IMG/VR virus record: IMGVR_UViG_3300047444_000299
Location: 1 to 64,000 of that record
Length of the DNA: 64,000 nt
Source: a virus
Taxonomy: Duplodnaviria; Heunggongvirae; Uroviricota; Caudoviricetes
Reading direction: 5' to 3' (one strand)
Positions 3,607 through 30,568 of this stretch are shown here, piece after piece. A model generated the notes under the pieces. The model ran no database searches. It was not told the DNA's origin and worked only from the letters and a program-made list of their open reading frames with translations. Every line of letters starts with the position of its first letter. The first letter of the stretch is position 1. A program made the translations under genes and the position numbers.

Positions 3607-4629
3607 ATGGATCATATAGACCAAGCGTACATCGGGCGGGTTTCCCTCCGATTAGATCAGTTCAAGCAGAAATCACCCGGACGGTACAACTTTAGATGTC
3701 CTATCTGCGGCGACTCGGCTAAGAATAAGTACAAGGCTCGCGCATGGTTCATCGGCCATGATGGTAAGACGTGGTTCAAATGCTTCAACGACGATACATG
3801 CGGGTCCGGTTTTGGATTCTTTCTGAAACGTCATGACCCAGCGCTGTATTCTGAATGGGCTCTTGAGAAATTCAGGGAATATGGTAACGGCAAGCGTCAA
3901 AGCTCGGTCCAAGAAGCCAAGCCGGTACGTCATATGGGTGATCCAGAATTGGTTCACGATTTACCGACGATTGCAAGCCTGCCACATGATCATTTTGCAC
4001 GGGCTTATATCGAAGACCGGAAGTTACCAACGCATTGGCTAGAAAAGTTGTATTTCTGTGAAAGCTGGAAAGAACTGACTAACCAATTTGAGCCGGATAC
4101 ATACAAAACAATCAAATCTGAGGAAGCTCGGATTGTGATTCCCGCTTACAACGAGAAGCGGGAATTGATCTGCTTTCAAGGTCGGAGTCTCGACCCAGAT
4201 GTGGATGAAAAGAAATACCTAACCGTCAAGGTTCAAGATTGCCTCAAAATCTGGGGCATGGACAAGGCGAAAAAGAATGCGCCGGTATTCCTGTTGGAAG
4301 GTGCATTTGATGCAATGTGTTTAAGCAACACTACGGCGATTCTCGGGGGCACTGCGAACCCTAATGATCTACCGGAAGGGTATGATTGGGTGTTCTCGCT
4401 CGATAATGAGCCGCGAAATGTTTCAGTCCTGCGACGATATCAACAATTGATTGATCGCAAGGCAAAGTTTGTGAACTGGCGTGGATGGCCCTACAAATTC
4501 AAAGATGTCAATGAGTGCATCAAGAATGGGATATCCGCCCGTGAGATTCAGCGTTATTTTGAATCAAATATTGTGTCCGGGCTACAAGCTCAACTTGAAT
4601 TTAATCTTTGGAAGAAAGCACCTTTATGA
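3607..4629 (+). CDS. 61: DNA primase (T4 gp61 family; Zn-ribbon + TOPRIM)
   Basis: N-terminal RCPICGDS..KARAW zinc-binding motif typical of gp61; position after helicase. Confidence 0.85.
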   Translation: MDHIDQAYIGRVSLRLDQFKQKSPGRYNFRCPICGDSAKNKYKARAWFIGHDGKTWFKCFNDDTCGSGFGFFLKRHDPALYSEWALEKFREYGNGKRQSSVQEAKPVRHMGDPELVHDLPTIASLPHDHFARAYIEDRKLPTHWLEKLYFCESWKELTNQFEPDTYKTIKSEEARIVIPAYNEKRELICFQGRSLDPDVDEKKYLTVKVQDCLKIWGMDKAKKNAPVFLLEGAFDAMCLSNTTAILGGTANPNDLPEGYDWVFSLDNEPRNVSVLRRYQQLIDRKAKFVNWRGWPYKFKDVNECIKNGISAREIQRYFESNIVSGLQAQLEFNLWKKAPL

Positions 4630-5837: not shown

Positions 5838-5866
5838 TTTAGATGAAATGGGATTCGTGATAGAAT
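5838..5866 (+). promoter_or_regulatory. sigma70-like early promoter TTTAGA-N17-TAGAAT
   Basis: upstream of the topoisomerase gene. Confidence 0.5.
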
Positions 5867-7720: not shown

Positions 7721-9015
7721 CCGAAACTACATTAAGTCAATTTGCTGCTGGCCCTTGGCGCGATTTCTCCCTGTACACAATCAGCGAGCGGGCTATCCCA
7801 TCGCTGATTGACGGGTTCAAACCATCACAGCGATTCATTATGTATTCCGCGTTTAAGAATGCATCAAATCGCTGGCTCAAGGTGTCGTCATTGGCGGCGA
7901 TTGCTGAATACGGCTATCACCACGGCGATGCAGCCGCACAGGAAACCGCTCAAAAGATGGCTGCGGATTGGTCGAACAACCAACCATGCCTGCTTGGCGA
8001 CGGTAACTTTGGCGACCGACTGGTTCAAGAGCCGTCAGCCCCTCGGTATGTGTTCGCACAGGTTCACCCGATGGTTCAAAAGCTGTTCAAAGACAACGAT
8101 CTTTGTCCAGCTCATGAAGACCCGGAACACATCCCACCGAAATACTACCTGCCAATCATCCCGATGGTTTTGGTCAATGGTGTTTCCGGGGTTGCAACTG
8201 GGTATGCGACGGACATCCCACCGTATGCATTAAATGATGTAAAAAACCTTTGCATCAAATATGTACAGGGTAAGGACATCGATTCAATTGATGTAATCCC
8301 GACATTCTACGGCTTCAAGGGTAAGATCGAACGTAACCCAAAAGGTGGGTTTGATCAGGTTGGTATTATCGAACTGAAAGGTAAGACTACCGCCATCATC
8401 AGTGAAGTACCGTTCAAGTACGACCGGGTGAAATACATCGCGGTTCTAGACGAGCTGCAAGAAAACGGGCTGATCCTGCGTTACGACGAGGATTGCGGCG
8501 ACCACGGCTTTAGATTCATTGTGGATTTGAAGCGTGGATTTGATACAAAGTCGAACGAAGAATTGATCAAATTGTTCAAGCTGCGTTCGTCTTTCACAGA
8601 AAACCTTACGGTACTGGATCAGGATCGTAAGCTGCGGAAATTCAGTGGGCCGCATGAGGTTGTTAGGGAGTTTTGCGACTTCCGTTTGCCATTCTATTCC
8701 GATAGGATCGCAAAGCAATTGGCGGAATCGGAACATAATTTCAAGGTAGCGGTTGCAAAGATCAAGTTTATCGGTATGATCCTCGACCAGAAGCTTGATT
8801 TTAAAGGGAAAACTAAAGCGGCACTCACAAAGGAGTTGACCGCTACCTTCGATAAGGATATTGTTCCGAGTCTATTAGGAATGGAATTCTACTCGCTGAC
8901 CAAGGATGAAATTGTAGTCCAGATGGGCAAGGCGAAAGCCCTTGACTCAAAACGGAATTACTGGAAAAATGCGACCCCTGCTGGGTTGTTCATAGAAGAT
9001 TTGGAACAGATTTAA
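7717..9015 (+). CDS. 52: DNA topoisomerase II medium subunit (GyrA-like; T4 gp52 family)
   Basis: GyrA-like N-terminus (SERAIPSLIDGFKPSQRFI); overlaps stop of gp39-like gene. Confidence 0.85.
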   Translation: MTETTLSQFAAGPWRDFSLYTISERAIPSLIDGFKPSQRFIMYSAFKNASNRWLKVSSLAAIAEYGYHHGDAAAQETAQKMAADWSNNQPCLLGDGNFGDRLVQEPSAPRYVFAQVHPMVQKLFKDNDLCPAHEDPEHIPPKYYLPIIPMVLVNGVSGVATGYATDIPPYALNDVKNLCIKYVQGKDIDSIDVIPTFYGFKGKIERNPKGGFDQVGIIELKGKTTAIISEVPFKYDRVKYIAVLDELQENGLILRYDEDCGDHGFRFIVDLKRGFDTKSNEELIKLFKLRSSFTENLTVLDQDRKLRKFSGPHEVVREFCDFRLPFYSDRIAKQLAESEHNFKVAVAKIKFIGMILDQKLDFKGKTKAALTKELTATFDKDIVPSLLGMEFYSLTKDEIVVQMGKAKALDSKRNYWKNATPAGLFIEDLEQI

Positions 9016-10457: not shown

Positions 10458-10789
10458 CCACACGAAGTCGTCTGGGGCCGATTGTAGATGAGCCCCGGAA
10501 AAAGTACCGGATCAAACTTGTACCCGGTGCTGATAAGTTGACGTTCAATCGCTTGGTGCGTTATGACCCGGTTGAAAACTATTATATCCCAATATATGAG
10601 ACGGTAACCATCCCAGATGGTGAAGTGATCGATTACTTCCTTACAGAAGACTCGGAATCAAATCCCGTGCATCTGTTCGCTCGTCAATTTGATACAAGGC
10701 TGTTTGTCTTGACTCAAGACGTGGTGGACGGTGCTGTACTGGAACCCGGTAAGGGTAATAACCAGCATTTATGGCTACAAGAAATTTAA
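10454..10789 (+). CDS. hypothetical protein
   Basis: 111 aa ORF, overlapping stop/start. Confidence 0.45.
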   Translation: MTTRSRLGPIVDEPRKKYRIKLVPGADKLTFNRLVRYDPVENYYIPIYETVTIPDGEVIDYFLTEDSESNPVHLFARQFDTRLFVLTQDVVDGAVLEPGKGNNQHLWLQEI

Positions 10790-10806
10790 TCAAATTCGGA
10801 GTTTGT

Positions 10807-11940
10807 ATGTCCACCAACCCATTCCAGCTTTATGATCAATTGATGCAATTGACCTTGATCGGTGATGCATTCTTCTTCAAAGACTTCCCAGCGGACGACC
10901 CGGAACGTATGTATCGGATCTTTAACTACCGACTGGCTAGCTATTCGGATTTCTGCAAACCCGGTGCGCTGGAATGTCGTGGAACGATGTTTCTGGTAGA
11001 TCGCAAAGGCAACTTTGACGATCTGGTTTGCCGACCACCGAAGAAATTTTTCAATCTGGGTGAAAACCCATTCACGATGGAATTGCCGCTGGATGATTTG
11101 GCAATGTGCATGGTCAAGGAAGACGGTTCGTTGATGTCTACCTACTTGCACACCAACGGCGAATTGCGTCTGAAATCGAAAGGTTCTACCGGATCGGTTC
11201 AATGTAATGATGCAATGGCGTTCCTCAAGACCCAACCGGCCCTGCTGGCGGATCTGCGGTTCCTCGCAGCCCGTGACTTTACGGTCAATCTGGAATGGTG
11301 CGCGCCGTGGAACCGTATCGTGGTTGGCTATCAGCAACCGAAACTGATCGGTCTGAGCATCATCGACAATCACACCGGTACTGTTTACGGACAAGACCTG
11401 ATTGATGATTTGGGTCTGGCTGGGGTTGACGATATCTGGGTTGAAGAATTCCAGTACACCGGCTTGTTGGCGGCTGCAATCAACAACCTGACAGGCACCG
11501 AAGGCGTTGTAGCCCTGACCAAACAAGGGGTTTACTTCAAAATGAAATGCCCGTGGTATCTGGCGTTGCACCGTAACAAGGACAACGTACAGAACACCAG
11601 AGCGTTGATCGAACTGATCCTTTCAGAACAGATTGATGACCTCAAGGTTCTGTTCTCGGACGACCCAGCGGTATTGAACAAAATCAATGCTTACGAAAAA
11701 AGTATCAGTTCTGTTTATAACCATACCTGTTCTGTGGTAGAATCATTTCATGACCGCAACAAGGATCTGTCTCAAAAAGACTACGCCATTGCTGCGAAGG
11801 CTGAATATTCCGATTGGGTGTTTAACATCCAAATGTCCAGATTTGTTGGGCGTGACTGGGAAACTCAGGCCAAAGAGTTCATGCAAAAGAACTATTCCAA
11901 TTATATCTTGAAAGAATTTGAGAGTTCGTCTGGTGAATAA
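10807..11940 (+). CDS. rnlA: RNA ligase 1 (T4 Rnl1 / gp63 family)
   Basis: strong similarity to T4 Rnl1 (YRIFNYRLASYSDFCKPGALECRGTMF, KFFNLGENPFTM, KEDGSL nucleotidyltransferase lysine motif); GGAG SD 7 nt upstream. Confidence 0.9.
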   Translation: MSTNPFQLYDQLMQLTLIGDAFFFKDFPADDPERMYRIFNYRLASYSDFCKPGALECRGTMFLVDRKGNFDDLVCRPPKKFFNLGENPFTMELPLDDLAMCMVKEDGSLMSTYLHTNGELRLKSKGSTGSVQCNDAMAFLKTQPALLADLRFLAARDFTVNLEWCAPWNRIVVGYQQPKLIGLSIIDNHTGTVYGQDLIDDLGLAGVDDIWVEEFQYTGLLAAAINNLTGTEGVVALTKQGVYFKMKCPWYLALHRNKDNVQNTRALIELILSEQIDDLKVLFSDDPAVLNKINAYEKSISSVYNHTCSVVESFHDRNKDLSQKDYAIAAKAEYSDWVFNIQMSRFVGRDWETQAKEFMQKNYSNYILKEFESSSGE

Positions 11941-16400: not shown

Positions 16401-16424
16401 GGCCACACATTGAGGGGATCAAGC

Positions 16425-17495
16425 GTGAGCAAAGTTAAAAAGTACGACCTAGCGGTTTTTATCGGGCGAATGGCACCACTGCATAATGCCCATCTGGAAA
16501 ACATTCAATTGGCAGATTCGATTGCTGATCGCGTTGTTGTGATTCTCGGCGGTGCTAACGCTCCGCGTGATGAACGAAATCCATTCAGTAACCAAGACCG
16601 TTCTCGAATGGTCGAAGCTGCAACCAGTGAAGCCGGGATCAAAGGTGTTGGCCTAGCCTTCATCAATGACAACCCATCCGATGATTTGTGGGCCGCTGAA
16701 ATCATGCGTCTGGCAAATCGTTACATTATGGGCATAGAGGCTCCGCGAATCGCAATCGTTGGGCACAAGAAAGATGATAGTTCATTCTATCTCGATTTGT
16801 TCCCAACGTGGGAATTCGTAGAAACCGGCGCAAAGATGCATGGCGACGAAGAAATGGCGGCAACATCAATCCGCAAACTGATGTTTGAGGATAATTTCGA
16901 ACCTGCCATGTACATGATGCCAGCATCTGTATACAACTACGTCAATTACGAATTCATCGGCTCCCCAGAGTATGATGCAATCCGTGAAGAATACATGTTC
17001 CACCAAGCTTACCCAGCAAAACGCCGTGCGTCTTACCCGATCAACGACGTTACCGCTGATGCTGTTGTTCTGTGCAAAAGCCACATCCTGTTGATTCGCC
17101 GTAAAAACATTCCCGGTAAAGGCAAACTGGCCCTACCCGGTGGATTCGTCAACACCAACGAAACGGTTGAAGACGGCGCGATTCGTGAACTGGATGAAGA
17201 AACAAAACTGCATGTACCTGAAAAGGTGTTGCGCAAGTCGATCATTGACGAAAAGCGGTTCGATAATCCGAAACGTTCCCTTCGCGGTCGGCTGATGACC
17301 TTCGCATTTACTTTCAAGATTGATACAAATCATGACGGTAGCTTGCCACGGGTTTACGGTTCCGATGACGCTGATAAGGCGTTCTGGGTTCCAATCTCGG
17401 ATATCTCGGCCCCTGAAAACGCGGCTGACTTTTTCGAAGACCACCACAACATCATCATGACCATGATCGGTCGTGCTGCGAAACAACAAAACTAA
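16425..17495 (+). CDS. natV: bifunctional NMN adenylyltransferase / Nudix hydrolase (NatV-like)
   Basis: N-terminal cytidylyltransferase motif (LAVFIGRMAPLHNAH), C-terminal Nudix box (GGFVNTNETVEDGAIRELDEET); GTG start with GAGGGGA SD. Confidence 0.85.
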   Translation: MSKVKKYDLAVFIGRMAPLHNAHLENIQLADSIADRVVVILGGANAPRDERNPFSNQDRSRMVEAATSEAGIKGVGLAFINDNPSDDLWAAEIMRLANRYIMGIEAPRIAIVGHKKDDSSFYLDLFPTWEFVETGAKMHGDEEMAATSIRKLMFEDNFEPAMYMMPASVYNYVNYEFIGSPEYDAIREEYMFHQAYPAKRRASYPINDVTADAVVLCKSHILLIRRKNIPGKGKLALPGGFVNTNETVEDGAIRELDEETKLHVPEKVLRKSIIDEKRFDNPKRSLRGRLMTFAFTFKIDTNHDGSLPRVYGSDDADKAFWVPISDISAPENAADFFEDHHNIIMTMIGRAAKQQN

Positions 17496-17520
17496 TTCAA
17501 TTTTCGAGGAGTTCGAAAGA

Positions 17521-19014
17521 ATGACAGCTTTCAATACAGAGTTTAACAAAGACAACGCAATCCTGATGGATTTCAACCCGGATAACCTGATCCTGAAATC
17601 CGATTCATACAAAGGTGGTCACTGGGAAATGCTCCCGGCTGGCGCTCAGTACCTGTATTCCTACGGGGAATCGCGTGGATCTGATCAATACGCTGTACGT
17701 GGTGTCAACGAAGGTTACACCTACACAGTTTTCCACGGTCTGCAAGGTATTCTGAAACGTCACTTCTCTAGTCGCCTGACTATGAAAGATGTTGATGAAG
17801 CCGAAGAACTGGTAGAGCTGCATATGGGACCGGGCGTTTTCAACCGTAAAGGTTGGGAACAGATTGTTACCCAGTTCAAAGGTAAACTGCCACTGCGTAT
17901 CCGCTGCCTGAAAGAAGGTACGGTTGTTCCTACCGGCAACGTTCTGTGGACTGTTGAAAACACCCACCCGGACTTTGCATGGTTGGTTTCGTACTTCGAA
18001 CCGCTGTTCCTGCAAGCGTGGTATCCAATTACGGTTGCTTCTGTTTCGTACAGCATCCGTCAAGTGGTAGAACAAGCTTTCCGTCAGTCGGTTGACGAAG
18101 GTGTTGGTAGCCAATTCAAGCTTCACGATTTCGGCTATCGCGGTGTATCCAGTAACGAATCGGCCCGTATTGGTGGTGCTGCTCACTTGGTGGCCGGTTG
18201 GATGGGTAGCGATACCATTCAGGCTGTTATCGAACTGAAAATGCACTACGGCGTGAAGAAAGGCGAAATGCCTGCCTTCTCGGTTCGTGCAACGGAACAC
18301 AGTGTTGTGTGTGCAAACTCCAACGCTGACACCCGCGACGATTCCAACGCTCTGGAAATGGCGATCCAACTGCTGGAGAAACACAAGGGCATCGTAGCCT
18401 GTGTGGGTGATACCTATAGCATTCGCCGTTTCGCGGAATGGTGTGCAACCGATCCGATCAAAACCCGAATCATCAATTCCGGTGGTACGTTTGTACTGCG
18501 CCCAGACTCTGGCAACCCGCTGGAAATTCCGGTCGAAATCATCGGTATCCTGATGGCTGGGTTTGGTTACACCGTGAACAGCAAAGGCTACAAAGTCCTG
18601 CCGAGCTGCATCCGAGTTCTGCAAGGCGACGGTATCAACGAATCCAGCATTCGTGGCATCTACGACAATATGTTCAAAAAGTCGCGTATGTACTCTGCTG
18701 ATAACATCGTTTTCGGTATGGGCGGCGCCCTGCTGCAACACTGCGACCGTGATTGGCTCAAATTTGCCATGAAAGCGGCTGCACTGTGCAAAAACGGCAT
18801 CTGGACTGACCTGTTCAAAGACCCGGACACCGATTCAGTTAAACGGTCGAAGAAAGGTCGAGTGACCACGTTCAAAGATTCGAGTGGGAAATACTTCTCG
18901 GATCGTATCGAACTGCAAGAAACCAATCACACAATCGTTGACCAACTGGTTACGGTGTGGGAAGACGGCGACCACATTATGCAGTGGGCGTTTAGCGAAA
19001 TCCGCATCCCGTAA
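17521..19014 (+). CDS. nadV: nicotinamide phosphoribosyltransferase (NAMPT, NadV-like)
   Basis: NAMPT motifs (LKSDSYKGGHW, FGYRGVSS, GSDT); 498 aa; GAGGAG SD. Confidence 0.9.
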   Translation: MTAFNTEFNKDNAILMDFNPDNLILKSDSYKGGHWEMLPAGAQYLYSYGESRGSDQYAVRGVNEGYTYTVFHGLQGILKRHFSSRLTMKDVDEAEELVELHMGPGVFNRKGWEQIVTQFKGKLPLRIRCLKEGTVVPTGNVLWTVENTHPDFAWLVSYFEPLFLQAWYPITVASVSYSIRQVVEQAFRQSVDEGVGSQFKLHDFGYRGVSSNESARIGGAAHLVAGWMGSDTIQAVIELKMHYGVKKGEMPAFSVRATEHSVVCANSNADTRDDSNALEMAIQLLEKHKGIVACVGDTYSIRRFAEWCATDPIKTRIINSGGTFVLRPDSGNPLEIPVEIIGILMAGFGYTVNSKGYKVLPSCIRVLQGDGINESSIRGIYDNMFKKSRMYSADNIVFGMGGALLQHCDRDWLKFAMKAAALCKNGIWTDLFKDPDTDSVKRSKKGRVTTFKDSSGKYFSDRIELQETNHTIVDQLVTVWEDGDHIMQWAFSEIRIP

Positions 19015-19030
19015 TTGATGTAAATAAAAA

Positions 19031-19052
19031 GGAGCCGAAAGGCTCCTTTTTT
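19031..19052 (+). terminator. rho-independent terminator
   Basis: GGAGCC-GAAA-GGCTCC followed by TTTTTT. Confidence 0.8.
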
Positions 19053-19053
19053 G

Positions 19054-19082
19054 TTTAGAATGAATCGAAACTGTGATATGAT
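19054..19082 (+). promoter_or_regulatory. sigma70-like early promoter TTTAGA-N17-TATGAT
   Basis: matches the recurrent (ctg)TTTAGA-N17-TAtaAT pattern of this region. Confidence 0.5.
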
Positions 19083-19106
19083 TCTGTTTCTAATGAGGAA
19101 TTAAGA

Positions 19107-19307
19107 ATGTACGACGAAACCGATGACAGCCTCCCGTTCAACTCTAGTTCGGAATTCAACGAGCGTAAGTTTCAATTCATTTTGAACTACTGCCTTGCCG
19201 AACGTACCAGTGGTAATGGCTCAGACATGGGATATGCCCACAACCGAAACGATTTGGTTGAAGCTGCGAGTAGCTTGTATGAAAAAGCCCTCGAAATCTG
19301 TCAGTGA
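19107..19307 (+). CDS. hypothetical protein
   Basis: 66 aa ORF downstream of promoter. Confidence 0.4.
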   Translation: MYDETDDSLPFNSSSEFNERKFQFILNYCLAERTSGNGSDMGYAHNRNDLVEAASSLYEKALEICQ

Positions 19308-19320
19308 GCCTGACGGCTTG

Positions 19321-19512
19321 ATGGCTGGGAAGGTAATCAAAATCACCCCACACGTCCCATTTTACAAACAGAATGGGTGTTCTGTCACGAAAGAGTGGCA
19401 AGAAAACTTTACAGATCGAATCGGAAACAAAGCAATCCTGACTCATTGTGAGTACACGGATAAGAAAGGCAAAATTCATACCTGTGTTATCCGGGTAAAG
19501 TGGAGTAATTGA
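19321..19512 (+). CDS. hypothetical protein
   Basis: internal ATG chosen to avoid overlap; 63 aa. Confidence 0.3.
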   Translation: MAGKVIKITPHVPFYKQNGCSVTKEWQENFTDRIGNKAILTHCEYTDKKGKIHTCVIRVKWSN

Positions 19513-20321
19513 TGGAATTCAGACTGATTTCTGATACACATTTAGAATGGTATGCATCCTTTGCGATGCCGTCACTGCCACACATCAACGGTGACAAGGA
19601 ACGTGTGTTGGTCATCGCCGGGGATTTCCATACCCTGAAACGGGCTGAGAACGTTGCACCCCTGTTGACTGAATACGGCCAGAGATTCAAGGCGGTTGTG
19701 TACGTTCCGGGGAATCACGAATACTACGGCAGCGTAATCAAACCGATGTCCAACCTGTTCAATTTCCAGAAAATGAACCCGGAAGGCTTGGATAACATCC
19801 ACTTCCTGATTCGTGACTCTATCGTAATTGATGGAATTCGTTTCGTCGGGGCCACGCTCTGGACTGACATGAATGATCGCGACCCTATCGCGGAATATCA
19901 ATTGAGTACCGGAATGAACGATTTCCGGGTGATTGATTACCATGATGAAAAGTTTGATCATTATGGTAAGTTCAAGGCGCGGCACTGGCAAGCCGAGCAT
20001 CACAAGGATTTGACGTATATCGCAGAGGAAGTTGGTAATTCGATGGAACCCTGTGTGGTTGTGACACACCATCCACCAAGTGCCCGTAGTCTCGACCCAA
20101 AGTTTGCAGATGCATCAAATTACTACATGAACTACGGCTATCACTCGGTATTGGACGAATTCATTCTGGATCGCCCTAGCATCAAATTCTGGTGCCACGG
20201 CCACGTTCATATCGTTCATGACTACATGATTGGTGACACCAATGTCATTTGCAACCCGTATGGCTACCCTGATCAAGACGACACAGGGTTTCTCGAAAAA
20301 AGTTTTTACAGAATTCATTGA
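19512..20321 (+). CDS. calcineurin-like metallophosphoesterase (CpdA/Icc-like phosphodiesterase)
   Basis: MPP motifs DTHLE, AGDF, GNHEYYG, TLWTD..., VVTHHPP, HGHVH; 270 aa, the size of cAMP phosphodiesterase CpdA. Confidence 0.7.
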   Translation: MEFRLISDTHLEWYASFAMPSLPHINGDKERVLVIAGDFHTLKRAENVAPLLTEYGQRFKAVVYVPGNHEYYGSVIKPMSNLFNFQKMNPEGLDNIHFLIRDSIVIDGIRFVGATLWTDMNDRDPIAEYQLSTGMNDFRVIDYHDEKFDHYGKFKARHWQAEHHKDLTYIAEEVGNSMEPCVVVTHHPPSARSLDPKFADASNYYMNYGYHSVLDEFILDRPSIKFWCHGHVHIVHDYMIGDTNVICNPYGYPDQDDTGFLEKSFYRIH

Positions 20322-20345
20322 CATTATGTTTTGAGTCGGTAGAAT
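20318..20345 (+). promoter_or_regulatory. sigma70-like promoter TTGACA-N16-TAGAAT
   Basis: near-consensus hexamers overlapping the 3' end of the phosphoesterase gene. Confidence 0.6.
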
Positions 20346-20374
20346 GGCGATATCAAAACAAAACGGTGATTGTA

Positions 20375-20644
20375 ATGAAACAGATTAAAGCGTTCTACGC
20401 GGCAAAGGTTACCCCTGTGCTTCGCCCGGTAGCGGTCTTCTTGATCATTCTGGGTAGTGCCGCACCGGTCGGTAAAGCAATCGGTATTATGGTATATGGT
20501 TGGATTTGTGGTATGAGCCAACCTACCACGATGTACGAAGACGTATTTGTCATGATCGGTTCGGCATTCGTCGGGGTTATGACTATCGCCTATTACATGA
20601 GTGCAATTTACCGAATTATGAAAAAACATTTCGAAACTGTTTAA
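20375..20644 (+). CDS. small integral membrane protein (NfeD-like partner candidate)
   Basis: about 3 hydrophobic helices; immediately upstream of the SPFH gene. Confidence 0.5.
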   Translation: MKQIKAFYAAKVTPVLRPVAVFLIILGSAAPVGKAIGIMVYGWICGMSQPTTMYEDVFVMIGSAFVGVMTIAYYMSAIYRIMKKHFETV

Positions 20645-20688
20645 AACAGAATCAAAATGTAGTATGATGTACATGTAACCCGGTCATA

Positions 20689-22071
20689 ATGACCACAAAC
20701 AAAACAAAGGATAGATTAGTGAGCAGTATTCTCGGATTTGAAGTAAACAAGAAACTCGGTTGGATGGCTGGTGTCGCAGTCGCCGCTCTGTTGTTCGTTT
20801 GGCTCATGTTTAGCAGCATGTTCTATTACAACAGCGCTGGCTACATCACTCAGGTTCAAACCAAGTTCCCAACTCAGGGTGAAAAGGTTGTTAGCACTAC
20901 AGGTTACACCTACATCGGTTTCGGTACGGTAACCCCGTGGCCCCGTCAGATGTCGGTTCAATCTGTTCTGGATACATCGACATTGCCGAAAGGTGACTTC
21001 GACGGATTGGGTTCTTCTCTGATTCCAGCCTTCGGCGTAACGTTCCTTGGTGGTGTGGTTGCCACGGTTGATGCAAACGTTCGTGTGGCCCTGCCAGAAG
21101 GTGAAACCTTCCTGCAACTGGCTCGAACCTACCGCACCCCGGACAACTTTGTTCTGCAATCGATCATGCCGGTAATGAAATCTACGCTGCAATCGACTGC
21201 CCAGTTGATGACCGCCGATGATTACTACAACGGACGTTCGACTGAATTCCGTCAGAGCTTTCAAGATCAAATCACCGATGGTTCGTATGTTGTGAGCCGC
21301 GTTGAAAAACAAGTCAAGAACACCCGTGCTGCGGCTCAAGGTGCAATCGTACAGAATGGTACAGCTCAAGGTGAATTCGGCGGCGACACCACTACTGTTG
21401 TGACCACCGAAAAGGTACTCGACCCAAAATCCGGTCTGCCGATTCGTCTGGAACGTCAGTTCTCGAAACTCGGTGTAACCGTAGCCGATGCGAACATTTT
21501 GAACATCGATCCGTCGCCTCAGTTCAAAGAGCGTATGAAAGCGGTTCAACAGTCGCAAGCTGATTTGTCTATTGCTCGCCAAGGTCGTCAGACTGCCGAC
21601 GAACAAAAGAAATTGGTTACCGCCAAGGGTGAAATGGAAGTTGAGCAGAAACGCCAAACTACCATGAAAGATCAGGTTGAACGTACCACCAACGCCGAAA
21701 CCGAAAAGCAATTGGCACTGACCAATGCTAATCGTGAGCAGGAAAAGGCTTCGATTGAGAAAGCAACTTCTCAGATCAAATACGAACAAGCCCAGATTGA
21801 TGCAAAGACCACCAAAGAGAAAGCCGAAGCCGAGGCGTATGCCAAGAAAGCGGTAATCATGGCGGATGGTGCTTTGACTCAGAAACTGGCGGCGCGTGTT
21901 GAAATCGAAAAGGTTTGGGCTAACGCATTCGAACATGCCAAGGTTCCACAACTGGTTATGGGTGGTTCTGGTGATGGCACTGGTCGTCAATCCGATGCAC
22001 AAACCCTGCAACAACTGGTAGGTATCAAAGCTGCGAAAGACCTCATGCTGGATATGAAAGTCTCTCAATAA
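20689..22071 (+). CDS. SPFH/band-7 (flotillin/HflKC-like) membrane protein with long C-terminal coiled coil
   Basis: N-terminal TM helix; SPFH-like core; Ala/Glu/Lys/Gln-rich coiled coil; alternative GTG start at 20720 has a better SD. Confidence 0.65.
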   Translation: MTTNKTKDRLVSSILGFEVNKKLGWMAGVAVAALLFVWLMFSSMFYYNSAGYITQVQTKFPTQGEKVVSTTGYTYIGFGTVTPWPRQMSVQSVLDTSTLPKGDFDGLGSSLIPAFGVTFLGGVVATVDANVRVALPEGETFLQLARTYRTPDNFVLQSIMPVMKSTLQSTAQLMTADDYYNGRSTEFRQSFQDQITDGSYVVSRVEKQVKNTRAAAQGAIVQNGTAQGEFGGDTTTVVTTEKVLDPKSGLPIRLERQFSKLGVTVADANILNIDPSPQFKERMKAVQQSQADLSIARQGRQTADEQKKLVTAKGEMEVEQKRQTTMKDQVERTTNAETEKQLALTNANREQEKASIEKATSQIKYEQAQIDAKTTKEKAEAEAYAKKAVIMADGALTQKLAARVEIEKVWANAFEHAKVPQLVMGGSGDGTGRQSDAQTLQQLVGIKAAKDLMLDMKVSQ

Positions 22072-22087
22072 TCAAAATTGAATAAGG

Positions 22088-22110
22088 AACCCGGCGAAAG
22101 TCGGGTTTTT
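22088..22110 (+). terminator. rho-independent terminator (family B: ACCCGGCGAAAGTCGGGTTTTT)
   Basis: hairpin + T-tract; identical sequence recurs at 53551 and 55893. Confidence 0.75.
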
Positions 22111-22113
22111 AAT

Positions 22114-22386
22114 ATGAAAAAGATCCCAAATTTGTTTCTAAAAGGTTTCGCCTCGGTACGTGCTAATGACGGTTTCCAATTTGGTGTAACCGGTCACAGT
22201 ACGATGATCGTCAAGCGACGTTTCACCGAAAACTTCAAATCGCATTACACCAAGTTCGATGATCAAACCGATTATATTCTGGTTCAACCTGTCAACCCGG
22301 TGGCCCTGAAAGGCTTCTTGAATGACATGAAAGGCACCAACGTAAGCGGCGACGAGCTGATTCGTCTTTTGATGGAACAGCTTTGA
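22114..22386 (+). CDS. hypothetical protein
   Basis: ATG immediately after the terminator; 90 aa. Confidence 0.45.
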   Translation: MKKIPNLFLKGFASVRANDGFQFGVTGHSTMIVKRRFTENFKSHYTKFDDQTDYILVQPVNPVALKGFLNDMKGTNVSGDELIRLLMEQL

Positions 22387-22979
22387 TCGTCACCGGTATT
22401 GGCTCTAGGGATATTGATGCAATCCAATTTGAGATTTGTCAGAAAGTCGCTAGAGTCTTCGCTAATAAAGGCTGGCATTTGCGGTCTGGTGGTGCTAGAG
22501 GCGCGGATAGTGCTTGGGAATTGGGATTTTCCGAATCTGATCGAAAGACAATCTATCTCCCAGAACCAAATTTCAACGGTCGCCCTAATACCGGGTGTTA
22601 TAAAGTCCCTGATACATTCGGGGATGTTTGGTTCGAAGCCCGCGAAATAGCAAGCCGACTTCATACCCGATTTGATCAACTCGATGAATTTGGACAGAAC
22701 GCCCATACCCGCAACGTGTTTCAGGTATTAGGTGACGACCTCAAGTCAAAAGCTGATTTGGTCGTCGTGTGTGCCCCACCAAGAGGCAAAACGGTCAAGG
22801 GTGGTACGGCTACAGCGTTCAATCTTGCAAAGGGCTTGAGAATCACCACATTCAATCTCTGGGAGCCCCAAGATCGGGAAGCCCTTTATAAAATCTACGC
22901 ACAGGAATTGATGCATGAACTCGCTCAGCGTTCCAACACCGGTCACGATCTTTTCGCAGCGTGTGTTGATTCACCTTAA
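22383..22979 (+). CDS. SLOG/DprA-like Rossmann-fold protein (standalone)
   Basis: GIGSRD...GWHLRSGGARGADSAWELG...TIYLPEP...VVVCAPP pattern typical of DprA/LOG/SLOG domains. Confidence 0.55.
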   Translation: MIVTGIGSRDIDAIQFEICQKVARVFANKGWHLRSGGARGADSAWELGFSESDRKTIYLPEPNFNGRPNTGCYKVPDTFGDVWFEAREIASRLHTRFDQLDEFGQNAHTRNVFQVLGDDLKSKADLVVVCAPPRGKTVKGGTATAFNLAKGLRITTFNLWEPQDREALYKIYAQELMHELAQRSNTGHDLFAACVDSP

Positions 22980-23007
22980 CGAAATCAAAGAAGTCATCGC
23001 CAAGGCG

Positions 23008-23217
23008 ATGGTTAACGCCCCGGTAACCGGGTTGAATCGAAAATCCCTCAAGCTGGAATTTGATGTAAAGGTTTCACCTGCATGTTGGGATTTCTTCGAG
23101 GCGAACGGTCACGATTTGCTGTATCTCGGTGGCTGGGAATTCAACGAATTCAATATGGGTGAGGATTTCACAATCGAAATCGGTATTACCGGCACCTACG
23201 AATCCAGCTTTCGATAA
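23008..23217 (+). CDS. hypothetical protein
   Basis: start uncertain (ORF extends upstream to 22915). Confidence 0.3.
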   Translation: MVNAPVTGLNRKSLKLEFDVKVSPACWDFFEANGHDLLYLGGWEFNEFNMGEDFTIEIGITGTYESSFR

Positions 23218-23233
23218 TTATTTTTCGATTCTG

Positions 23234-23262
23234 TTTATTACAACTCAAAACTGATATAGAAT
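23234..23262 (+). promoter_or_regulatory. sigma70-like promoter TTTATT-N17-TAGAAT (possibly leaderless)
   Basis: -10 ends 6 nt before ATG 23269 and there is no SD. Confidence 0.4.
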
Positions 23263-23268
23263 AGGCTC

Positions 23269-23571
23269 ATGAGCAAACAACTAAGCAATACATTGGTGCA
23301 ATATTCGGCGGTAGCTGATACCCAAAAGATCAAACTGAATATCGGTGATGTTCGGGATCTGACTGCCCGCAAGACCTTCTACGAATCCGCAACTGTTTCG
23401 GCTATCACCATCCTCAGTTGGGTTGCCGACAATCTGCCGATTTCGTTTGAAGAACGCAAAAACATCGAAGCCCTGATTCAATCGGTGGCGAAAGAACCGG
23501 GTTTGGACAAAATCGAGCTGTCTGAGCAGCTTAACACCCTGTTGGCGATTGCCAACCACTACACCAAGTAA
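23269..23571 (+). CDS. hypothetical protein
   Basis: 100 aa ORF. Confidence 0.45.
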   Translation: MSKQLSNTLVQYSAVADTQKIKLNIGDVRDLTARKTFYESATVSAITILSWVADNLPISFEERKNIEALIQSVAKEPGLDKIELSEQLNTLLAIANHYTK

Positions 23572-23579
23572 GGTATTTG

Positions 23580-23939
23580 ATGAAAAGTCAAAAAGGCAAT
23601 TCGGCGGTTGAATTACTGATCTACGGCGCAATTCTGATGGTGATCCTGTTGTTTGGCGGTGCCAAAGCGATTCTGTATCTGGCTACCGGCAATGATGTGG
23701 TTGTCACTGTGTCCGACAAGGGCGAACGCTGTAAGTCGGTCGGCAACTGCACGTACCTGATTTATACCGATCATGGCACATTCGAGAACCGAGATTCGTG
23801 GTTGAATTGGAAATTCAATTCGTCCGACATCTACGGCGATATCAAGCGTGATACCAAGTATCAGTTCCATACCAATGGTATTCGCGTACCGTTCCTGAGC
23901 TGGTATCCAAACATTTCTAAGGTACAGGAAGTCAAGTAA
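23580..23939 (+). CDS. hypothetical membrane-anchored/secreted protein
   Basis: N-terminal hydrophobic segment (AVELLIYGAILMVILLFGGA). Confidence 0.45.
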   Translation: MKSQKGNSAVELLIYGAILMVILLFGGAKAILYLATGNDVVVTVSDKGERCKSVGNCTYLIYTDHGTFENRDSWLNWKFNSSDIYGDIKRDTKYQFHTNGIRVPFLSWYPNISKVQEVK

Positions 23940-24421
23940 TGGGAACACTTCTGGGTGGTATTTTCGCAGTCGCCGCATTGGCACATCAATTTGATGTGGA
24001 CAAGGGTGGTAAGGCATACATCCTGCATTGCATTACCGTAATGCAGAATGCTCAAAAGATGGGCGTTACCAGCGAAGTCAGTCTTGCACTCGCGGCTTGC
24101 CATGATGTCAAGGAAGACCACCCGGAACTGCTTCAACATTTATTGATTCATGCCAAAGCCCACGGTGTCATTGACGAATTCGAATCTGGTCTGGATTTAC
24201 TGACCCGGCGCCCTGATGAATCCTATGAGGATTTCATCAAACGCATTATCGCATCGGGCAGGATCGACATTATTCGGATTAAAAAGGCCGATCTTAAACA
24301 CAACTCCTGCATTACAAGGCTCAAGGGCGTGCGTCCTAGCGATATCGCTAGGATTCAGACCTACCACAAAGCTTGGATGGAATTGGAGAACACGGAAAAA
24401 AATCTGAATGTTGTTATCTGA
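23939..24421 (+). CDS. HD-domain phosphohydrolase, SpoT/Mesh1-like small alarmone hydrolase candidate
   Basis: H...LALAACHDVKED motif equals the RelA/SpoT hydrolase LLHDVVED signature; 160 aa, the size of SAH enzymes. Confidence 0.6.
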   Translation: MGTLLGGIFAVAALAHQFDVDKGGKAYILHCITVMQNAQKMGVTSEVSLALAACHDVKEDHPELLQHLLIHAKAHGVIDEFESGLDLLTRRPDESYEDFIKRIIASGRIDIIRIKKADLKHNSCITRLKGVRPSDIARIQTYHKAWMELENTEKNLNVVI

Positions 24422-24599
24422 TTATAAAAAATTGCTTGCAAGTCACGACTGGTTCTATCAGTATAGCGATGACGGCAAGGTGTATCGCTCGGGGAGAGCA
24501 GCGTTTGAGACACTTTGCCGTCAACAGGCAATTTTGGATTTGGACGCTTCGATCTGGAACGAACATTGCCCACCTGATTACAAGCTGTACAAAAAATAA
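24408..24599 (+). CDS. hypothetical small protein
   Basis: 63 aa. Confidence 0.3.
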   Translation: MLLSDYKKLLASHDWFYQYSDDGKVYRSGRAAFETLCRQQAILDLDASIWNEHCPPDYKLYKK

Positions 24600-24632
24600 C
24601 CAAAAACATAAAGCATTAGGAGCAGGGTCGGA

Positions 24633-25466
24633 ATGGGCGCAGTTGCGGCAGTTGCAGATATGGGTTGTGCAGAAAGTGTTTGCATTTCCTTTGCAGGTGG
24701 TGTAGTCAAATTTGGTCCGTCCTACGACGATCTGGTACATCAAGCAGTCGATGATGTCAAGGTCATCCAAGGGGATGTCCGCAACCTTCCGAAGAATTTG
24801 ATTAAAATCTTCGACAAGTATGCAACCAAGCAATCGCTCGGCAGCGAGTTTACTCCCTGCGATGATGTCGGAGATAGTGGGTACGACATCGAATTTATCT
24901 CCGAAGTGTTGGGTAAGTGCTTTATTTTCATCGGGAATGGCTCGTTCGCGGAGGTTTTCAGCATCGACCCTGAATGGGTGCTGAAAGTCAACTGCCATGA
25001 CAACTTTCATTCGCCGGTTGACGGTGGGTTTGGGTGGATGAAGACCTGCACCAAGCATCAAGGGAACCCGTACATTCCTAACCTTTCATCGATTGAACAG
25101 CGTGGACATCTGTACATCGCTGTGGTAGAGCATCTGCATTTGGGTGTTGGCCTGTCGTTTGAGGATGGTTCGCTGGGTGACCTGTCAGAAGAATCCTATA
25201 GCCCTGACTTTGATGTAAACCTGTACATGGACGAAGCTGAATTTACATTCGGCCAGTTCATCAAACACAGCCCAAAAGATGCAATTGAAGCAGCTCGGGT
25301 TTACGAATCACATCGTAAAGATGTACGCGGCTGTGATGACATCAGCCGGGACAATGTTATGCACCGGGGCGGGTTTCCGGTACTGACAGACCCGATCTGT
25401 GATACAGGTAGTGGCTATACGCAATTGGAACAAGGCTCGTCGTTTTCATGGATGTCGAAAAACTGA
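24633..25466 (+). CDS. protein-kinase-fold protein 1 (APH/ePK-like)
   Basis: Gly-rich loop IGNGSFAEVF, VLKV lysine, catalytic DDISRDN, metal-binding LTDPI. Confidence 0.5.
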   Translation: MGAVAAVADMGCAESVCISFAGGVVKFGPSYDDLVHQAVDDVKVIQGDVRNLPKNLIKIFDKYATKQSLGSEFTPCDDVGDSGYDIEFISEVLGKCFIFIGNGSFAEVFSIDPEWVLKVNCHDNFHSPVDGGFGWMKTCTKHQGNPYIPNLSSIEQRGHLYIAVVEHLHLGVGLSFEDGSLGDLSEESYSPDFDVNLYMDEAEFTFGQFIKHSPKDAIEAARVYESHRKDVRGCDDISRDNVMHRGGFPVLTDPICDTGSGYTQLEQGSSFSWMSKN

Positions 25467-26059
25467 TTGATTGTCTAATTACTGGTGATTTGCAGGGGGC
25501 ATTCCAACATGCTCCCCGCGTTTTCCACGAAACCCTAGAGCTGCAACGCTTGATGCCGGTGGGTTGGAAATATCACGGAACAGGGTTCTACTCGTCGGTG
25601 ATTGGGCAAATTGATTCTGATAAGGTGTTCAAGCTGTCGTGGAAAGGGTCCGATCCTTGGATTCAGTACGCGGAGCATGTAACCCGGCATATGGATTTAA
25701 ATCCATTGATGCCGAAAATTTATAATCTGGTTGTAGATGATGGTCGAGCAATTGCCTGTATGGAACGGCTCTATGAGTCTGAAATCGTTCATAGTGTTGG
25801 TATGTCGAATGTTGTAAAACTCTGTAGAAATCAATGGTTTAGCAATCAGTTTAAAACTCTGAATGCCAAGCGAAAGAAAATTGCAGATTTTTTGCGATAT
25901 CAGTTTGACATGCGCGGGAACCGGAATTACAATACAAACAACCTAGCAGATATTGTGATTTGGATGGCTGGGTTACCGGATGCGAAAGTGGATTGTCACG
26001 GGTCAAACTGGATGATTCGCACCACCGGACAACTCGTTCTTACCGATCCAATTGGATAA
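25448..26059 (+). CDS. protein-kinase-fold protein 2 (paralog of upstream gene)
   Basis: HGTGFYSSVI G-loop, VFKL lysine, catalytic VDCHGSNWMI (HxDxxxxN), LVLTDPI. Confidence 0.5.
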   Translation: MDVEKLIDCLITGDLQGAFQHAPRVFHETLELQRLMPVGWKYHGTGFYSSVIGQIDSDKVFKLSWKGSDPWIQYAEHVTRHMDLNPLMPKIYNLVVDDGRAIACMERLYESEIVHSVGMSNVVKLCRNQWFSNQFKTLNAKRKKIADFLRYQFDMRGNRNYNTNNLADIVIWMAGLPDAKVDCHGSNWMIRTTGQLVLTDPIG

Positions 26060-26074
26060 ACAAAGGAAATTGTT

Positions 26075-26467
26075 ATGAAAACTTCTATGATGGTATTGGC
26101 ACTTGCACTCGGTTCTCTGGCACTGACAGGCTGTGCCTCGAAACAAGACGAACAGCACAGCGAAGCTCGAACCGATGGTACGCGGGTATTCTACAACTGC
26201 TCGTCCCTCATTCAGAAACAGTTGGTGATCCAACAGTTCAACCAATGCTACCTGAATGGGCCGAAGACCAAAGAAAACCGATTCGACTGTGAAGAAGTCG
26301 CCCGGTCGATGGCATGTGATCGGATGGTGGAAATCACCCGGAGCGAACCAGCTCCGGTTCAAGCACCGGCCCCTGTAGTAGTCTCCCCGGTGGTGATTTC
26401 GCCCCCAGCTTCGGTGGTACAGGTTAACCCTGTTCCAACCCCGGCCCCAGTGGCAACCGTTCAGTAA
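26075..26467 (+). CDS. lipoprotein with Pro-rich C-terminal tail
   Basis: signal peptide + lipobox LALTGC; PAPVQAPAPVVVSPVV tail. Confidence 0.6.
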   Translation: MKTSMMVLALALGSLALTGCASKQDEQHSEARTDGTRVFYNCSSLIQKQLVIQQFNQCYLNGPKTKENRFDCEEVARSMACDRMVEITRSEPAPVQAPAPVVVSPVVISPPASVVQVNPVPTPAPVATVQ

Positions 26468-26487
26468 TACAACCCAACCCCTCAAAG

Positions 26488-26510
26488 GGCGGCGTTAGCC
26501 GCCTTTTTTA
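26488..26510 (+). terminator. rho-independent terminator
   Basis: GGCGGC-GTTA-GCCGCC + TTTTTT. Confidence 0.8.
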
Positions 26511-27575: not shown

Positions 27576-27851
27576 ATGACAACAAAGATTTTCGGCGCAA
27601 CTTGGTGTGCTAATTGCAAAACCGCAAAACAGTTTCTCGAAGCAAACGGCTATATCGTAAGCGAGCAACGTGAAACCTCTGCGCCATATGAAGCAAATCC
27701 GAAGTACGTTCGGTATGTGAATATCGATGAATTCCCGGACGAAGCCCAAGCGAACAACATCCGTTCACTCCCAACCCTGATTACCGAAGCCGGTGATCGT
27801 GTGATTGGCTCTGCGAAGATTAAAGAGTATGTCACTTCTCAAAGCAATTGA
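27576..27851 (+). CDS. glutaredoxin/NrdH-like redoxin
   Basis: KIFGATWCANCKTAKQFL thioredoxin-fold CxxC. Confidence 0.6.
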   Translation: MTTKIFGATWCANCKTAKQFLEANGYIVSEQRETSAPYEANPKYVRYVNIDEFPDEAQANNIRSLPTLITEAGDRVIGSAKIKEYVTSQSN

Positions 27852-28329
27852 TCGTGCTTACCGGGTATCCCAAGAGCGCAAATATGATCGTATCTACTGG
27901 TCCCTTGACCTGCATGGTACGGTTCTGCATGGGAACTACCAACAGAATACATATGAATGGATTTCGCCAGAGATTCCGGGCATCTTGAAACAGCTCTCAG
28001 AATTTAATGAAACCCATTTCATCCTCTGGAGTTCTCTACACCCGGAAGAAATTCCGAATGTATTGAAGTTTTTCAAGAATGCGGGTATCCATGTATTCGC
28101 AGTCAACAGCAACCCACTGGAAGGCAACACCCAGACTGGGAATTTTGATGCAAAGTTTTACACCTCCATCATCGTAGATGATAAAGCTGGGTTTGATCCT
28201 GCTGACTGGGATCATGTTTACCGGGCTACGCTTCATTACCGGGAACGATATGGGTTTGCCGATAGGTATCATCACCCACATCGATCCAACATCGAACCGT
28301 GGCCGCTTGGCTGTGCGCAATACAAATAA
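27805..28329 (+). CDS. HAD-like hydrolase with atypical motif I (DLHGT)
   Basis: IYWSLDLHGTVL, ILWSS, IVDDKAG resemble HAD motifs I/II/IV; start uncertain. Confidence 0.35.
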   Translation: MALRRLKSMSLLKAIDRAYRVSQERKYDRIYWSLDLHGTVLHGNYQQNTYEWISPEIPGILKQLSEFNETHFILWSSLHPEEIPNVLKFFKNAGIHVFAVNSNPLEGNTQTGNFDAKFYTSIIVDDKAGFDPADWDHVYRATLHYRERYGFADRYHHPHRSNIEPWPLGCAQYK

Positions 28330-28332
28330 TAA

Positions 28333-28357
28333 AAGGCCCGGTTTTCCGGGCTTTTTA
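28333..28357 (+). terminator. rho-independent terminator
   Basis: GCCCGG-TTTT-CCGGGC + TTTTT. Confidence 0.8.
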
Positions 28358-28403
28358 TTGCCTACAGATTCTATCGATACAAAATCTTTTTGTTTTGAAA
28401 GTG

Positions 28404-28432
28404 TTTAGAATAGGCGGAAACTGCGGTAGAAT
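28404..28432 (+). promoter_or_regulatory. sigma70-like promoter TTTAGA-N17-TAGAAT (near-leaderless)
   Basis: shares the GAAAGTGTTT...TAGAAT module with 37231-37266; ATG 8 nt after the -10. Confidence 0.5.
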
Positions 28433-30539: not shown

Positions 30540-30568
30540 TTTAGATTCATCGGAAACAGGTGTATCAT
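30540..30568 (+). promoter_or_regulatory. sigma70-like promoter TTTAGA-N17-TATCAT
   Basis: ctgTTTAGA pattern, inverted repeat CTGTTT/AAACAG in the spacer. Confidence 0.45.

Follow-up and report, generated by a model that had tools for sequence, protein, structure and literature searches.

Is the set of unannotated enzyme genes lying immediately 3′ of the NAD+ salvage genes of a T4-type phage a discrete anti-defence island, or an ordinary piece of the genome that carries it? The question arises at positions 19031–26510 of a 64,000-nucleotide stretch of viral DNA (positions 1 to 64,000 of IMG/VR record IMGVR_UViG_3300047444_000299, Caudoviricetes), the whole of which we call the window. An earlier note, made from the letters alone, had described this interval (hereafter the block) as an accessory island lying between two strong intrinsic terminators. 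Our analysis suggests another answer. The block is probably a stretch of the long, one-directional early 'hyperplastic' region of a T4-type myovirus of the Milchi/Astolliot clade, vertically inherited and encoding products that act independently of one another. We observed which genes, folds and catalytic motifs are present, where terminators lie and how far synteny extends; the timing of expression, the substrates and an anti-defence role we infer. The region contains new members of known families in a known type of genome region and does not represent a new kind of system.

The genes of the block on which the argument turns are as follows.

19509–20321, plus strand: calcineurin-like metallophosphoesterase (MPE), Pfam Metallophos and phrog_1649, in 7/7 relatives
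20689–22071, plus strand: membrane-anchored SPFH/band-7 protein, Band_7 and phrog_11908, in 7/7 relatives
22383–22979, plus strand: standalone SLOG-fold, DprA-like Rossmann protein, in 7/7 relatives
23269–23571, plus strand: small open reading frame (ORF) of 100 aa (g100b), in 7/7 relatives
23577–23939, plus strand: signal-anchored or secreted small protein (sec120), phrog_301, in 6/7 relatives
23939–24421, plus strand: RelA/SpoT-type HD hydrolase, a predicted Aph1-like small alarmone hydrolase, in 7/7 relatives
24633–25466, plus strand: predicted T7 gp0.7-family protein kinase K1, 277 aa, without shut-off domain
25448–26059, plus strand: predicted T7 gp0.7-family minimal kinase K2, 203 aa, a paralogue of K1
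26075–26467, plus strand: small lipoprotein with four conserved Cys, in 7/7 relatives

We compared the window with seven relatives (Milchi, Astolliot, three IMG/VR contigs and two Logan contigs), whose proteins share 25–94% identity with those of the window and of which contig L006 is the closest. All seven display the common order RnlB–lysozyme–NatV–NadV–MPE–SPFH–SLOG–g100b–(sec120)–HD–K1–K2–lipoprotein–…–thioredoxin–HAD phosphatase, with the exception of L011, where the lysozyme is without a match and another gene, of 109 aa, takes that place. Every relative carries, in this order, the genes for MPE, SPFH, SLOG, g100b, HD, K1, K2 and the lipoprotein. Collinearity extends past both supposed boundaries, and turnover is limited to small ORFs and, in some relatives, an extra Phage_30_3 gene. 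The GC content of the block (0.45–0.50) is ordinary when set against the window mean of 0.458. The earlier note had proposed a gene-neighbourhood comparison to see whether the block varies, and had counted identical synteny among relatives as an outcome against its reading; synteny proved largely identical. With eight genes in order, collinear flanks and ordinary GC content, a variable accessory or anti-defence island was rejected, and a conserved internal terminator and the scattering of the same families elsewhere also speak against the words 'island' and 'unit'. Phage records that carry the SLOG family number 1516, those with the HD family 212, with the MPE family 195, with the SPFH family 21 and with K2 2 (the last by tblastn). 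Phage phiN3 carries block families at 132, 200 and 206 kb, with 74 kb between SLOG and HD, and in ChuuTotoro these two lie 43 kb apart. Because family counts differ so widely and the families lie far apart in other genomes, the parts appear to be independent.

The boundaries themselves were re-examined by a consensus terminator tool and by our own RNAfold-based hairpin scan, which also covered five of the relatives. Three hairpins concern the block.

19026–19052, plus strand: intrinsic terminator after NadV, AAAAAGGAGCC-GAAA-GGCTCC-T6 (RNAfold scan, core −11.4 kcal/mol)
22088–22110, plus strand: internal terminator-like hairpin, AACCCGGC-GAAA-GTCGGGTT-T5 (RNAfold scan)
26484–26509, plus strand: intrinsic terminator after the lipoprotein gene (consensus tool and RNAfold scan)

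Both terminators reported at the ends of the block are real, the first having been missed by the consensus tool and seen in the sequence and in our scan. The post-NadV hairpin occupies the same place in 5/5 scanned relatives although its stem sequences differ, and for this reason it is more than a chance feature. The two terminators do not, however, bound a single block. The third hairpin lies inside it, with its start 17 nt beyond the stop codon of SPFH and its end 3 nt short of the following ATG, and is kept in position in 5/5 scanned relatives, again with different stems, versus only 2/5 (L006 and L008) for the right-hand terminator. This conserved internal hairpin therefore points to two transcription units, not one. 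Similar terminators recur every 1–10 kb across the window in the RNAfold scan, and to be terminator-bounded is therefore ordinary here. Besides termination, the hairpin at 22088–22110 may affect translation initiation or mRNA stability; no Shine–Dalgarno sequence lies between it and the ATG of the next gene (22088–22116).

A family of promoter-like sites, TTTAGA-N17-TAnnAT with a common internal GAAAC-N-G-N-G, accompanies some of these hairpins and occurs four times in the window against 0.39 expected.

5838–5866: promoter-like site
19054–19082, plus strand: promoter-like site TTTAGA-N17-TATGAT, forming a PeSL-like composite with the terminator at 19026–19052
28404–28432: promoter-like site
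30540–30568: promoter-like site

Two of the four, at 19054 and 28404, stand directly 3′ of terminators, so that composites of a terminator followed by a putative promoter are found at 19026–19082 and 28336–28432 but not at 22088–22110 or 26484–26509; no site of this family follows 22110 or 26509. The site at 19054 is also present in L006 and L011.

This architecture resembles that of the hyperplastic regions (HPRs) of T4-type phages, in which PeSL terminator/early-promoter composites have been described (Arbiol et al. 2010, PMC2839356; Comeau et al. 2014, PMC4122927). As in HPRs, a one-directional array of small non-core early genes lies amid core genes of replication and repair, the array is punctuated by GC stem-loops with putative sigma70-like promoters behind them (19026–19082 and 28336–28432), and single small ORFs are gained or lost among relatives. 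The block differs from HPRs in that its larger genes are inherited stably throughout the clade rather than shuffled, its right-hand hairpin has no promoter half, and the promoter consensus TTTAGA-N17-TAnnAT is specific to the clade.

Related hairpins occur well beyond the block. Families whose terminator hairpins are nearly identical, GCCTCGGGAAACCGGGGC, GCCCCTGATTCTAGGGGC and ACCCGGCGAAAGTCGGGTTTA, are repeated through the distal early region (37200–62000), with T-runs grouped at 37220, 47813 and 53946; at 50866, 58623, 60333 and 61905; and at 53562 and 55914. The hairpin at 22088–22110 is a variant of the third repeated family. An additional family, AGGGGTTGCATCAAAT..CAACCCCTA, occupies the minus strand, with T-runs at 54609, 55012, 55328, 56739 and 62799. 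These repeated families may be PeSL-like mobile regulatory cassettes.

The surrounding genes place the block within the phage genome. The window has a GC content of 45.8%, and nearly all plausible ORFs lie on its plus strand.

1047–2492: gp41-like helicase, upstream of the block
3607–4629: primase, upstream of the block
5894–9015: topoisomerase II, two subunits, upstream of the block
10771–11940: RnlA, upstream of the block
immediately upstream of the block, ahead of NatV and NadV: RnlB and a GH108 lysozyme
16410–17495: NatV, immediately upstream of the block
17473–19014: NadV, immediately upstream of the block
27805–28329: HAD phosphatase, 174 aa, downstream of the block (BT0820-family model, 4e-9)

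The T4-type replication and repair genes upstream indicate that the phage is T4-type and that the interval lies in its early non-core region. As the earlier note had it, the genes of the block, those for the metallophosphoesterase, SPFH, HD and lipoprotein proteins among them, are not T4 core genes. A megablast search of the block against 50,697 phage records gave no match, and relatives are detectable only at the protein level. The earlier note would have sought comparison among schizo-T4 phages; the nearest protein matches belong instead to Pseudomonas phages Milchi and Astolliot (80% identity for NadV and 64% for SPFH), which have been grouped as one genus (PMC11780129), and all other NadV matches fall below 60% identity. 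The adjacency to NadV and NatV stands, as these genes of the NARP2 pathway end immediately before the block (16410–19014). NadV/Nampt and NatV/NMNAT-Nudix together form NARP2, an NAD+ reconstitution pathway (10.1101/2024.02.11.579819). Its genes share the early array of the block but are separated from it by a conserved terminator, and no block protein belongs to NARP1, NARP2 or NARP3. The NadV ORF as called has a GTG start overlapping the end of NatV, and its homologues align only from about residue 8–32; the true start is probably an internal Met at about residue 17 (MTAFNTEF; 17473–17566). Downstream, the Milchi orthologue of the 27805–28329 protein is labelled 'phosphoheptose isomerase', probably a mis-annotation.

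We next consider the block proteins, for which the earlier assignments of gene and fold were largely right, those of NfeD and CpdA being wrong. In searches of the PDB, the HD protein matched the Aph1 (p)ppApp hydrolase best (7SMG, 5.9e-15), followed by 7qps ('ACT domain protein', 2.6e-4) and RelSeq (0.03), and NCBIfam returned a partial match to SpoT (1e-6). Its catalytic residues H30, H55-D56, E59-D60, D118 and N122 are invariant in the orthologues. These residues and similarities bear out the SpoT-type assignment and identify a predicted RelA/SpoT-type hydrolase of the small alarmone hydrolase (SAH) kind. Like Aph1 and other SAHs, it comprises a single HD domain of about 150–160 aa with all catalytic H, HD, ED, D and N residues, and it retains D24 and R119, which set ppApp specificity in Aph1 (PMC10083569). 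Phage SAHs, of which PaSpo is an example, neutralise toxSAS toxins (PMC9712102); Aph1, PaSpo and the HD protein are all phage-encoded. The differences from Aph1 are that two residues of its six-residue family signature (D24, R96, D116, R119, K133 and Y134; PMC10083569) are changed, that activity is here predicted from sequence, and that the gene stands in a lytic T4-type phage with no adjacent (p)ppApp synthetase toxin.

The two tandem kinase-fold paralogues were upheld by profile–profile alignment. Plain BLASTP detects no significant similarity between K1 and K2; aligned as orthologue profiles, they match with 95.9% probability (E 5e-9). Both have a G-loop, a β3 Lys, a D..N catalytic loop and a DP[I/L/F] motif. 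The K1 profile matches residues 8–227 of T7 gp0.7, including its DPV motif (E 1.6e-8), and the K2 profile matches the gp0.7 N-lobe (E 1.9e-6). Replacement of DFG by DP[V] is the hallmark of homologues of the T7 gp0.7 kinase, T7K, which phosphorylates host proteins broadly and disarms defences (PMC13645617). By these matches, K1 and K2 are predicted members of the T7K family. With T7K and JSS1_004 (PMC13645617; Jiang et al. 2024 as cited there), the likeness extends to the kinase fold, DP[V/I/L] in place of DFG and a gene position among early genes. Both proteins end at the DP motif region; the C-terminal shut-off/DNA-binding domain is missing, which has also been described for jumbo-phage homologues (PMC13645617). 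They also differ from T7K in being two diverged tandem paralogues rather than one gene, in the minimal 203-aa domain of K2 and in their T4-type carrier.

K2-like genes were found by tblastn only in Milchi and Astolliot; the K2-like kinase family has no Pfam model and comprises about 1300 representatives at 50% identity. Seven metagenomic proteins of 600–1340 aa (P0061, P0063, P0064, P0065, P0067, P0071 and P0074) carry 3–5 tandem T7K-like minimal kinase domains of about 200 aa each, echoing the adjacent K1 and K2 genes; they may be genuine multi-kinase proteins or the result of gene calls that were fused. Among the conserved genes, K1 and K2 (24633–26059) diverge fastest, with 25–42% identity to the more distant relatives versus 54–81% for NadV, SPFH and the lipoprotein. 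Such divergence would fit host-interaction genes under diversifying pressure.

SLOG domains of the ThsA type bind glycocyclic ADP-ribose (gcADPR). The phage SLOG protein has the Rossmann-like SLOG fold with glycine-rich GGxxGxD and GGT motifs, and its closest clade is that of DprA, in line with its description as a standalone SLOG/DprA-like Rossmann protein. At 198 aa it consists of the Rossmann domain only, and it belongs to phrog_768. Its scores against DprA models fall below their cut-offs (PF02481, 21.6 versus 29.6; TIGR00732, 14.9 versus 191). DprA proper, the recombination mediator, was therefore rejected on these scores and on the missing architecture of SAM-like N-domain, Rossmann domain and C-terminal domain. 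The protein also matches PsyrA and ShosA models, and a PADLOC scan returned weak or partial matches only. Compared with the DprA/ShosA/PsyrA clade (PDB 3MAJ, 4LJK, 8ZVA; PMC11961720), it has no SAM N-domain, no DprA C-terminal domain and no counterpart of ShosA's unstable C-terminus; its gene does not lie beside a phosphoribosyltransferase (PRTase) or helicase toxin; and phrog_768 is very common in unrelated phages.

The MPE matches PF00149 Metallophos (8e-12, 46.4 bits against a gathering cut-off of 21.5) and phrog_1649 (9e-53). Its DxH, GD, GNHE, HH and GHxH motifs are invariant among six orthologues (D9/H11, G38-D39, N69-H70-E71, H187/H188 and H230-G231-H232/H234), and it is a member of the calcineurin-like superfamily that is predicted to be active. 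Of its earlier description as 'CpdA/Icc-like', the metallophosphoesterase part holds and the specificity does not, as the assignment goes no further than the superfamily. No NCBIfam model matched at E<=0.1, and a single-sequence search of the PDB gave no match. With a profile, only 6UNC (1.5e-3) and Lmo2642 (0.02) were found, both confined to the N-terminal motifs. A CpdA/Icc class III cyclic-nucleotide phosphodiesterase has no specific support, given that NCBIfam and PDB searches yielded nothing beyond generic superfamily motifs. We also set aside a tie between the MPE and NAD+ salvage. In Rak2-like jumbo phages, MPE homologues lie 5–15 kb from NatV/NadV with many unrelated genes between, and the known NARP1-extending phosphatase belongs to the macro-domain enzymes rather than to the metallophosphoesterases (10.64898/2026.01.28.702374).

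The SPFH protein scores above the gathering cut-off for PF01145 Band_7 (6.9e-9, 36.4 bits versus 23.6) and matches phrog_11908 (6e-70). It has a hydrophobic or transmembrane segment at residues 22–47 and a long C-terminal region rich in Ala, Glu and Lys; its matches in the PDB, to HflC and prohibitin, are weak. PDB searches with the sequences of MPE, SLOG, SPFH and K2 gave nothing useful. The SPFH gene is preceded by the ORF that the earlier note paired with it as NfeD-like.

20375–20644 (alternative start 20318), plus strand: small ORF with 2–3 transmembrane segments, a lineage-specific insertion

Of this pair, SPFH stands and NfeD does not. The ORF has no family match in Pfam, PHROG or NCBIfam, and hydropathy assigns its 89 aa entirely to transmembrane segments, leaving no room for an OB-fold domain. 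L006, the closest relative, does not have it, and the six remaining relatives contain no homologue. The NfeD identity was thus rejected for want of a match, of space for the OB domain and of conserved adjacency to SPFH across the seven relatives, and the supposed partner comes down to a small membrane ORF that is not conserved. In phiN3, Slicko01 and pVp-1, SPFH is preceded by genes of unrelated PHROGs, and its upstream neighbours differ in every other phage group. An MPE–SPFH module reaching beyond the clade was also rejected, the phiN3 MPE being of another family, phrog_547 (hhalign 1.5%). The SPFH protein of the block resembles those of bacterial SPFH–NfeD operons (flotillin FloT/YqiK with NfeD; HflK/C) in its N-terminal anchor, SPFH domain and long Ala/Glu/Lys-rich C-terminus and differs from them in having no NfeD partner.

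The lipoprotein was confirmed by its lipobox, L-[TGA]-G-C (L-x-G-C), which is invariant in eight orthologues. Its NCBIfam matches are driven by the signal peptide, and membership of the Exc2 entry-exclusion family was rejected, with one of the eight orthologues matching, under the cut-off. The protein of this phage has a unique tail of about 45 aa, rich in Pro and Val (…APAPVVVSPVVISPPASVVQVNPVPTPAPVATVQ; 26330–26464), that is missing in all seven orthologues.

The block has six small ORFs besides those in the earlier note. The small ORFs not yet listed are these.

19107–19307, plus strand: variable small ORF of 66 aa, homologues in 3/7 relatives, no family match
19321–19512, plus strand: variable small ORF of about 63 aa (long form from 19195), phrog_18660
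22114–22386, plus strand: small ORF of 90 aa (g90), homologues in 5/7 relatives
22915–23217, plus strand: variable small ORF of 100 aa, in 3/7 relatives
24408–24599, plus strand: variable small ORF of 63 aa, in 3/7 relatives

The Milchi paper (PMC11780129) mentions, for the small ORF that follows NadV, no more than a negligible match to KlcA. In four relatives the g90 homologue is separated from SLOG by an additional gene of about 150 aa that the window does not contain; in L011 and L012 it is called Phage_30_3 (PF08010).

10666–11115 of L001: extra gene
10914–11366 of L002: extra gene
6419–6892 of L011: extra gene
6723–7196 of L012: extra gene

How might these genes work? Whereas the earlier note treated the block as one stretch between terminators, a picture that was incomplete, a first transcription unit would start with the promoter-like site at 19054, end with the hairpin at 22088–22110 and carry two small ORFs, the MPE gene, the small membrane ORF and the SPFH gene. 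A second unit would extend from 22114 to the terminator at 26484–26509, probably fed by read-through, and carry small ORFs and the genes for the DprA-like SLOG, the secreted or anchored protein, the Aph1-like hydrolase, the two T7K-type kinases and the lipoprotein. The products would most likely serve as independent host-takeover or counter-defence effectors early in infection. The HD enzyme may hydrolyse (p)ppApp, and possibly (p)ppGpp or 3′-pyrophosphorylated tRNA, and so blunt stringent or toxSAS-type responses. K1 and K2 would phosphorylate host proteins broadly, like T7K; the SPFH protein, the secreted protein and the lipoprotein may have an envelope role, in membrane organisation or superinfection exclusion; and the MPE would have some phosphoester as its substrate and the SLOG protein a nucleotide or single-stranded DNA (ssDNA) as its ligand. 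The anti-defence or host-takeover roles suggested earlier are plausible to this extent, as the HD protein (Aph1/SAH) and the kinases (T7K) have characterised relatives that act in conflict; a single described unit is not supported.

Several points weigh against vertical inheritance of independently acting early products. The strict order from SLOG through HD, K1 and K2 to the lipoprotein in 7/7 relatives is also expected of a co-functional operon, and order conservation alone cannot separate ancestry from functional linkage because all seven relatives form one clade. Early timing and read-through of the 22088–22110 hairpin are deduced solely from position and from promoter- and terminator-like motifs, and every product function is drawn from homology. 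The HD protein retains four of the six Aph1 signature residues (D24, R96, R119 and Y134), with D116 replaced by Cys or Ser and K133 by Thr.

The alternative that survives best, although unlikely, is that the enzymes serve phage nucleotide and cofactor metabolism, extending the neighbouring NAD+ and RNA-repair genes, rather than immune conflict. The MPE and HD proteins would then recycle host nucleotides as nucleotidases or phosphodiesterases, and SLOG would be a LOG-like nucleotide N-glycosidase or an ssDNA-binding recombination mediator. The neighbourhood accords with this proposal, as it includes RnlA, RnlB, PNK (in relatives), NatV, NadV, thioredoxin, the HAD phosphatase and a MazG-like NTP-PPase (in Milchi), and the MPE homologues near NatV/NadV in Rak2-like jumbo phages lie amid dCMP deaminase and ligase genes. 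However, the HD protein is specifically of the RelA/SpoT type (Aph1, SpoT, Rel), not of the dNTPase or YfbR type, the closest structures to SLOG are those of the DprA clade, and the kinases, SPFH protein, lipoprotein and secreted protein have no obvious metabolic role.

Next comes the proposal, likewise unlikely in our assessment, that the second transcription unit (SLOG, HD, K1, K2 and possibly the lipoprotein) is one co-functional counter-defence module. The kinases could, for example, shut down the host while SLOG and the hydrolase neutralise the toxin–antitoxin or abortive-infection systems so triggered (ShosTA/PsyrTA-type and toxSAS). Gene order that stays identical in 7/7 relatives despite 25–60% amino-acid identity is consistent with this, as are the short or overlapping intergenic spacing and the lack of a detected terminator between genes of the unit. 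T7 gp0.7 triggers ShosTA, whose antitoxin ShosA is DprA-like (PMC11961720). Yet this order comes from one clade, in which shared ancestry may explain it, and relatives carry variable small ORFs and the extra Phage_30_3 gene between members. SLOG is far more widespread than HD and distant from it elsewhere, as in phiN3 and ChuuTotoro, tblastn finds K2-like genes in Milchi and Astolliot only, and the phage SLOG lacks the SAM domain and C-terminus of ShosA.

We hold it to be quite improbable that SLOG, HD, K1 and K2 form a coordinated 'shut-off plus insurance' set that pre-empts the abortive infection triggered by host shut-off. K1 and K2 would inactivate host proteins, SLOG would replace labile DprA-like antitoxins (ShosA/PsyrA) or sponge a nucleotide signal like ThsA-type SLOG, and the Aph1-like hydrolase would erase (p)ppApp or tRNA pyrophosphorylation. 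The link between ShosA and gp0.7, attractive though unsupported, was given little weight here, as phages that have no such kinases commonly carry phrog_768 proteins. Least probable, and already largely refuted, is the idea that the block was acquired recently as a mobile accessory island with the two terminators as its ends: shuffled modules with PeSLs on their flanks are known from T4-type phages (PMC2839356, PMC4122927) and the left border does have a terminator and promoter-like composite, but all seven relatives are collinear down to about 25–60% identity, composition shows no anomaly, the right-border terminator is unconserved and has no promoter of the same family, and indels affect single small ORFs within the block, never the whole of it.

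The favoured reading, a vertically inherited stretch of early hyperplastic region, has consequences for how such loci are viewed. Terminator-bounded blocks of non-core genes are normal architecture for the early regions of T4-type phages, and reading one as an island needs a synteny check first. If the homology-based functions hold, several counter-defence tools lie next to one another in the early region of this clade: NAD+ reconstitution by NARP2, an alarmone hydrolase and a pair of T7K-type kinases. This would provide a compact list of counter-defence candidates for plant-associated Pseudomonas phages and would add T4-type phages to the Autographiviridae, in which T7K-type kinases have so far been studied.

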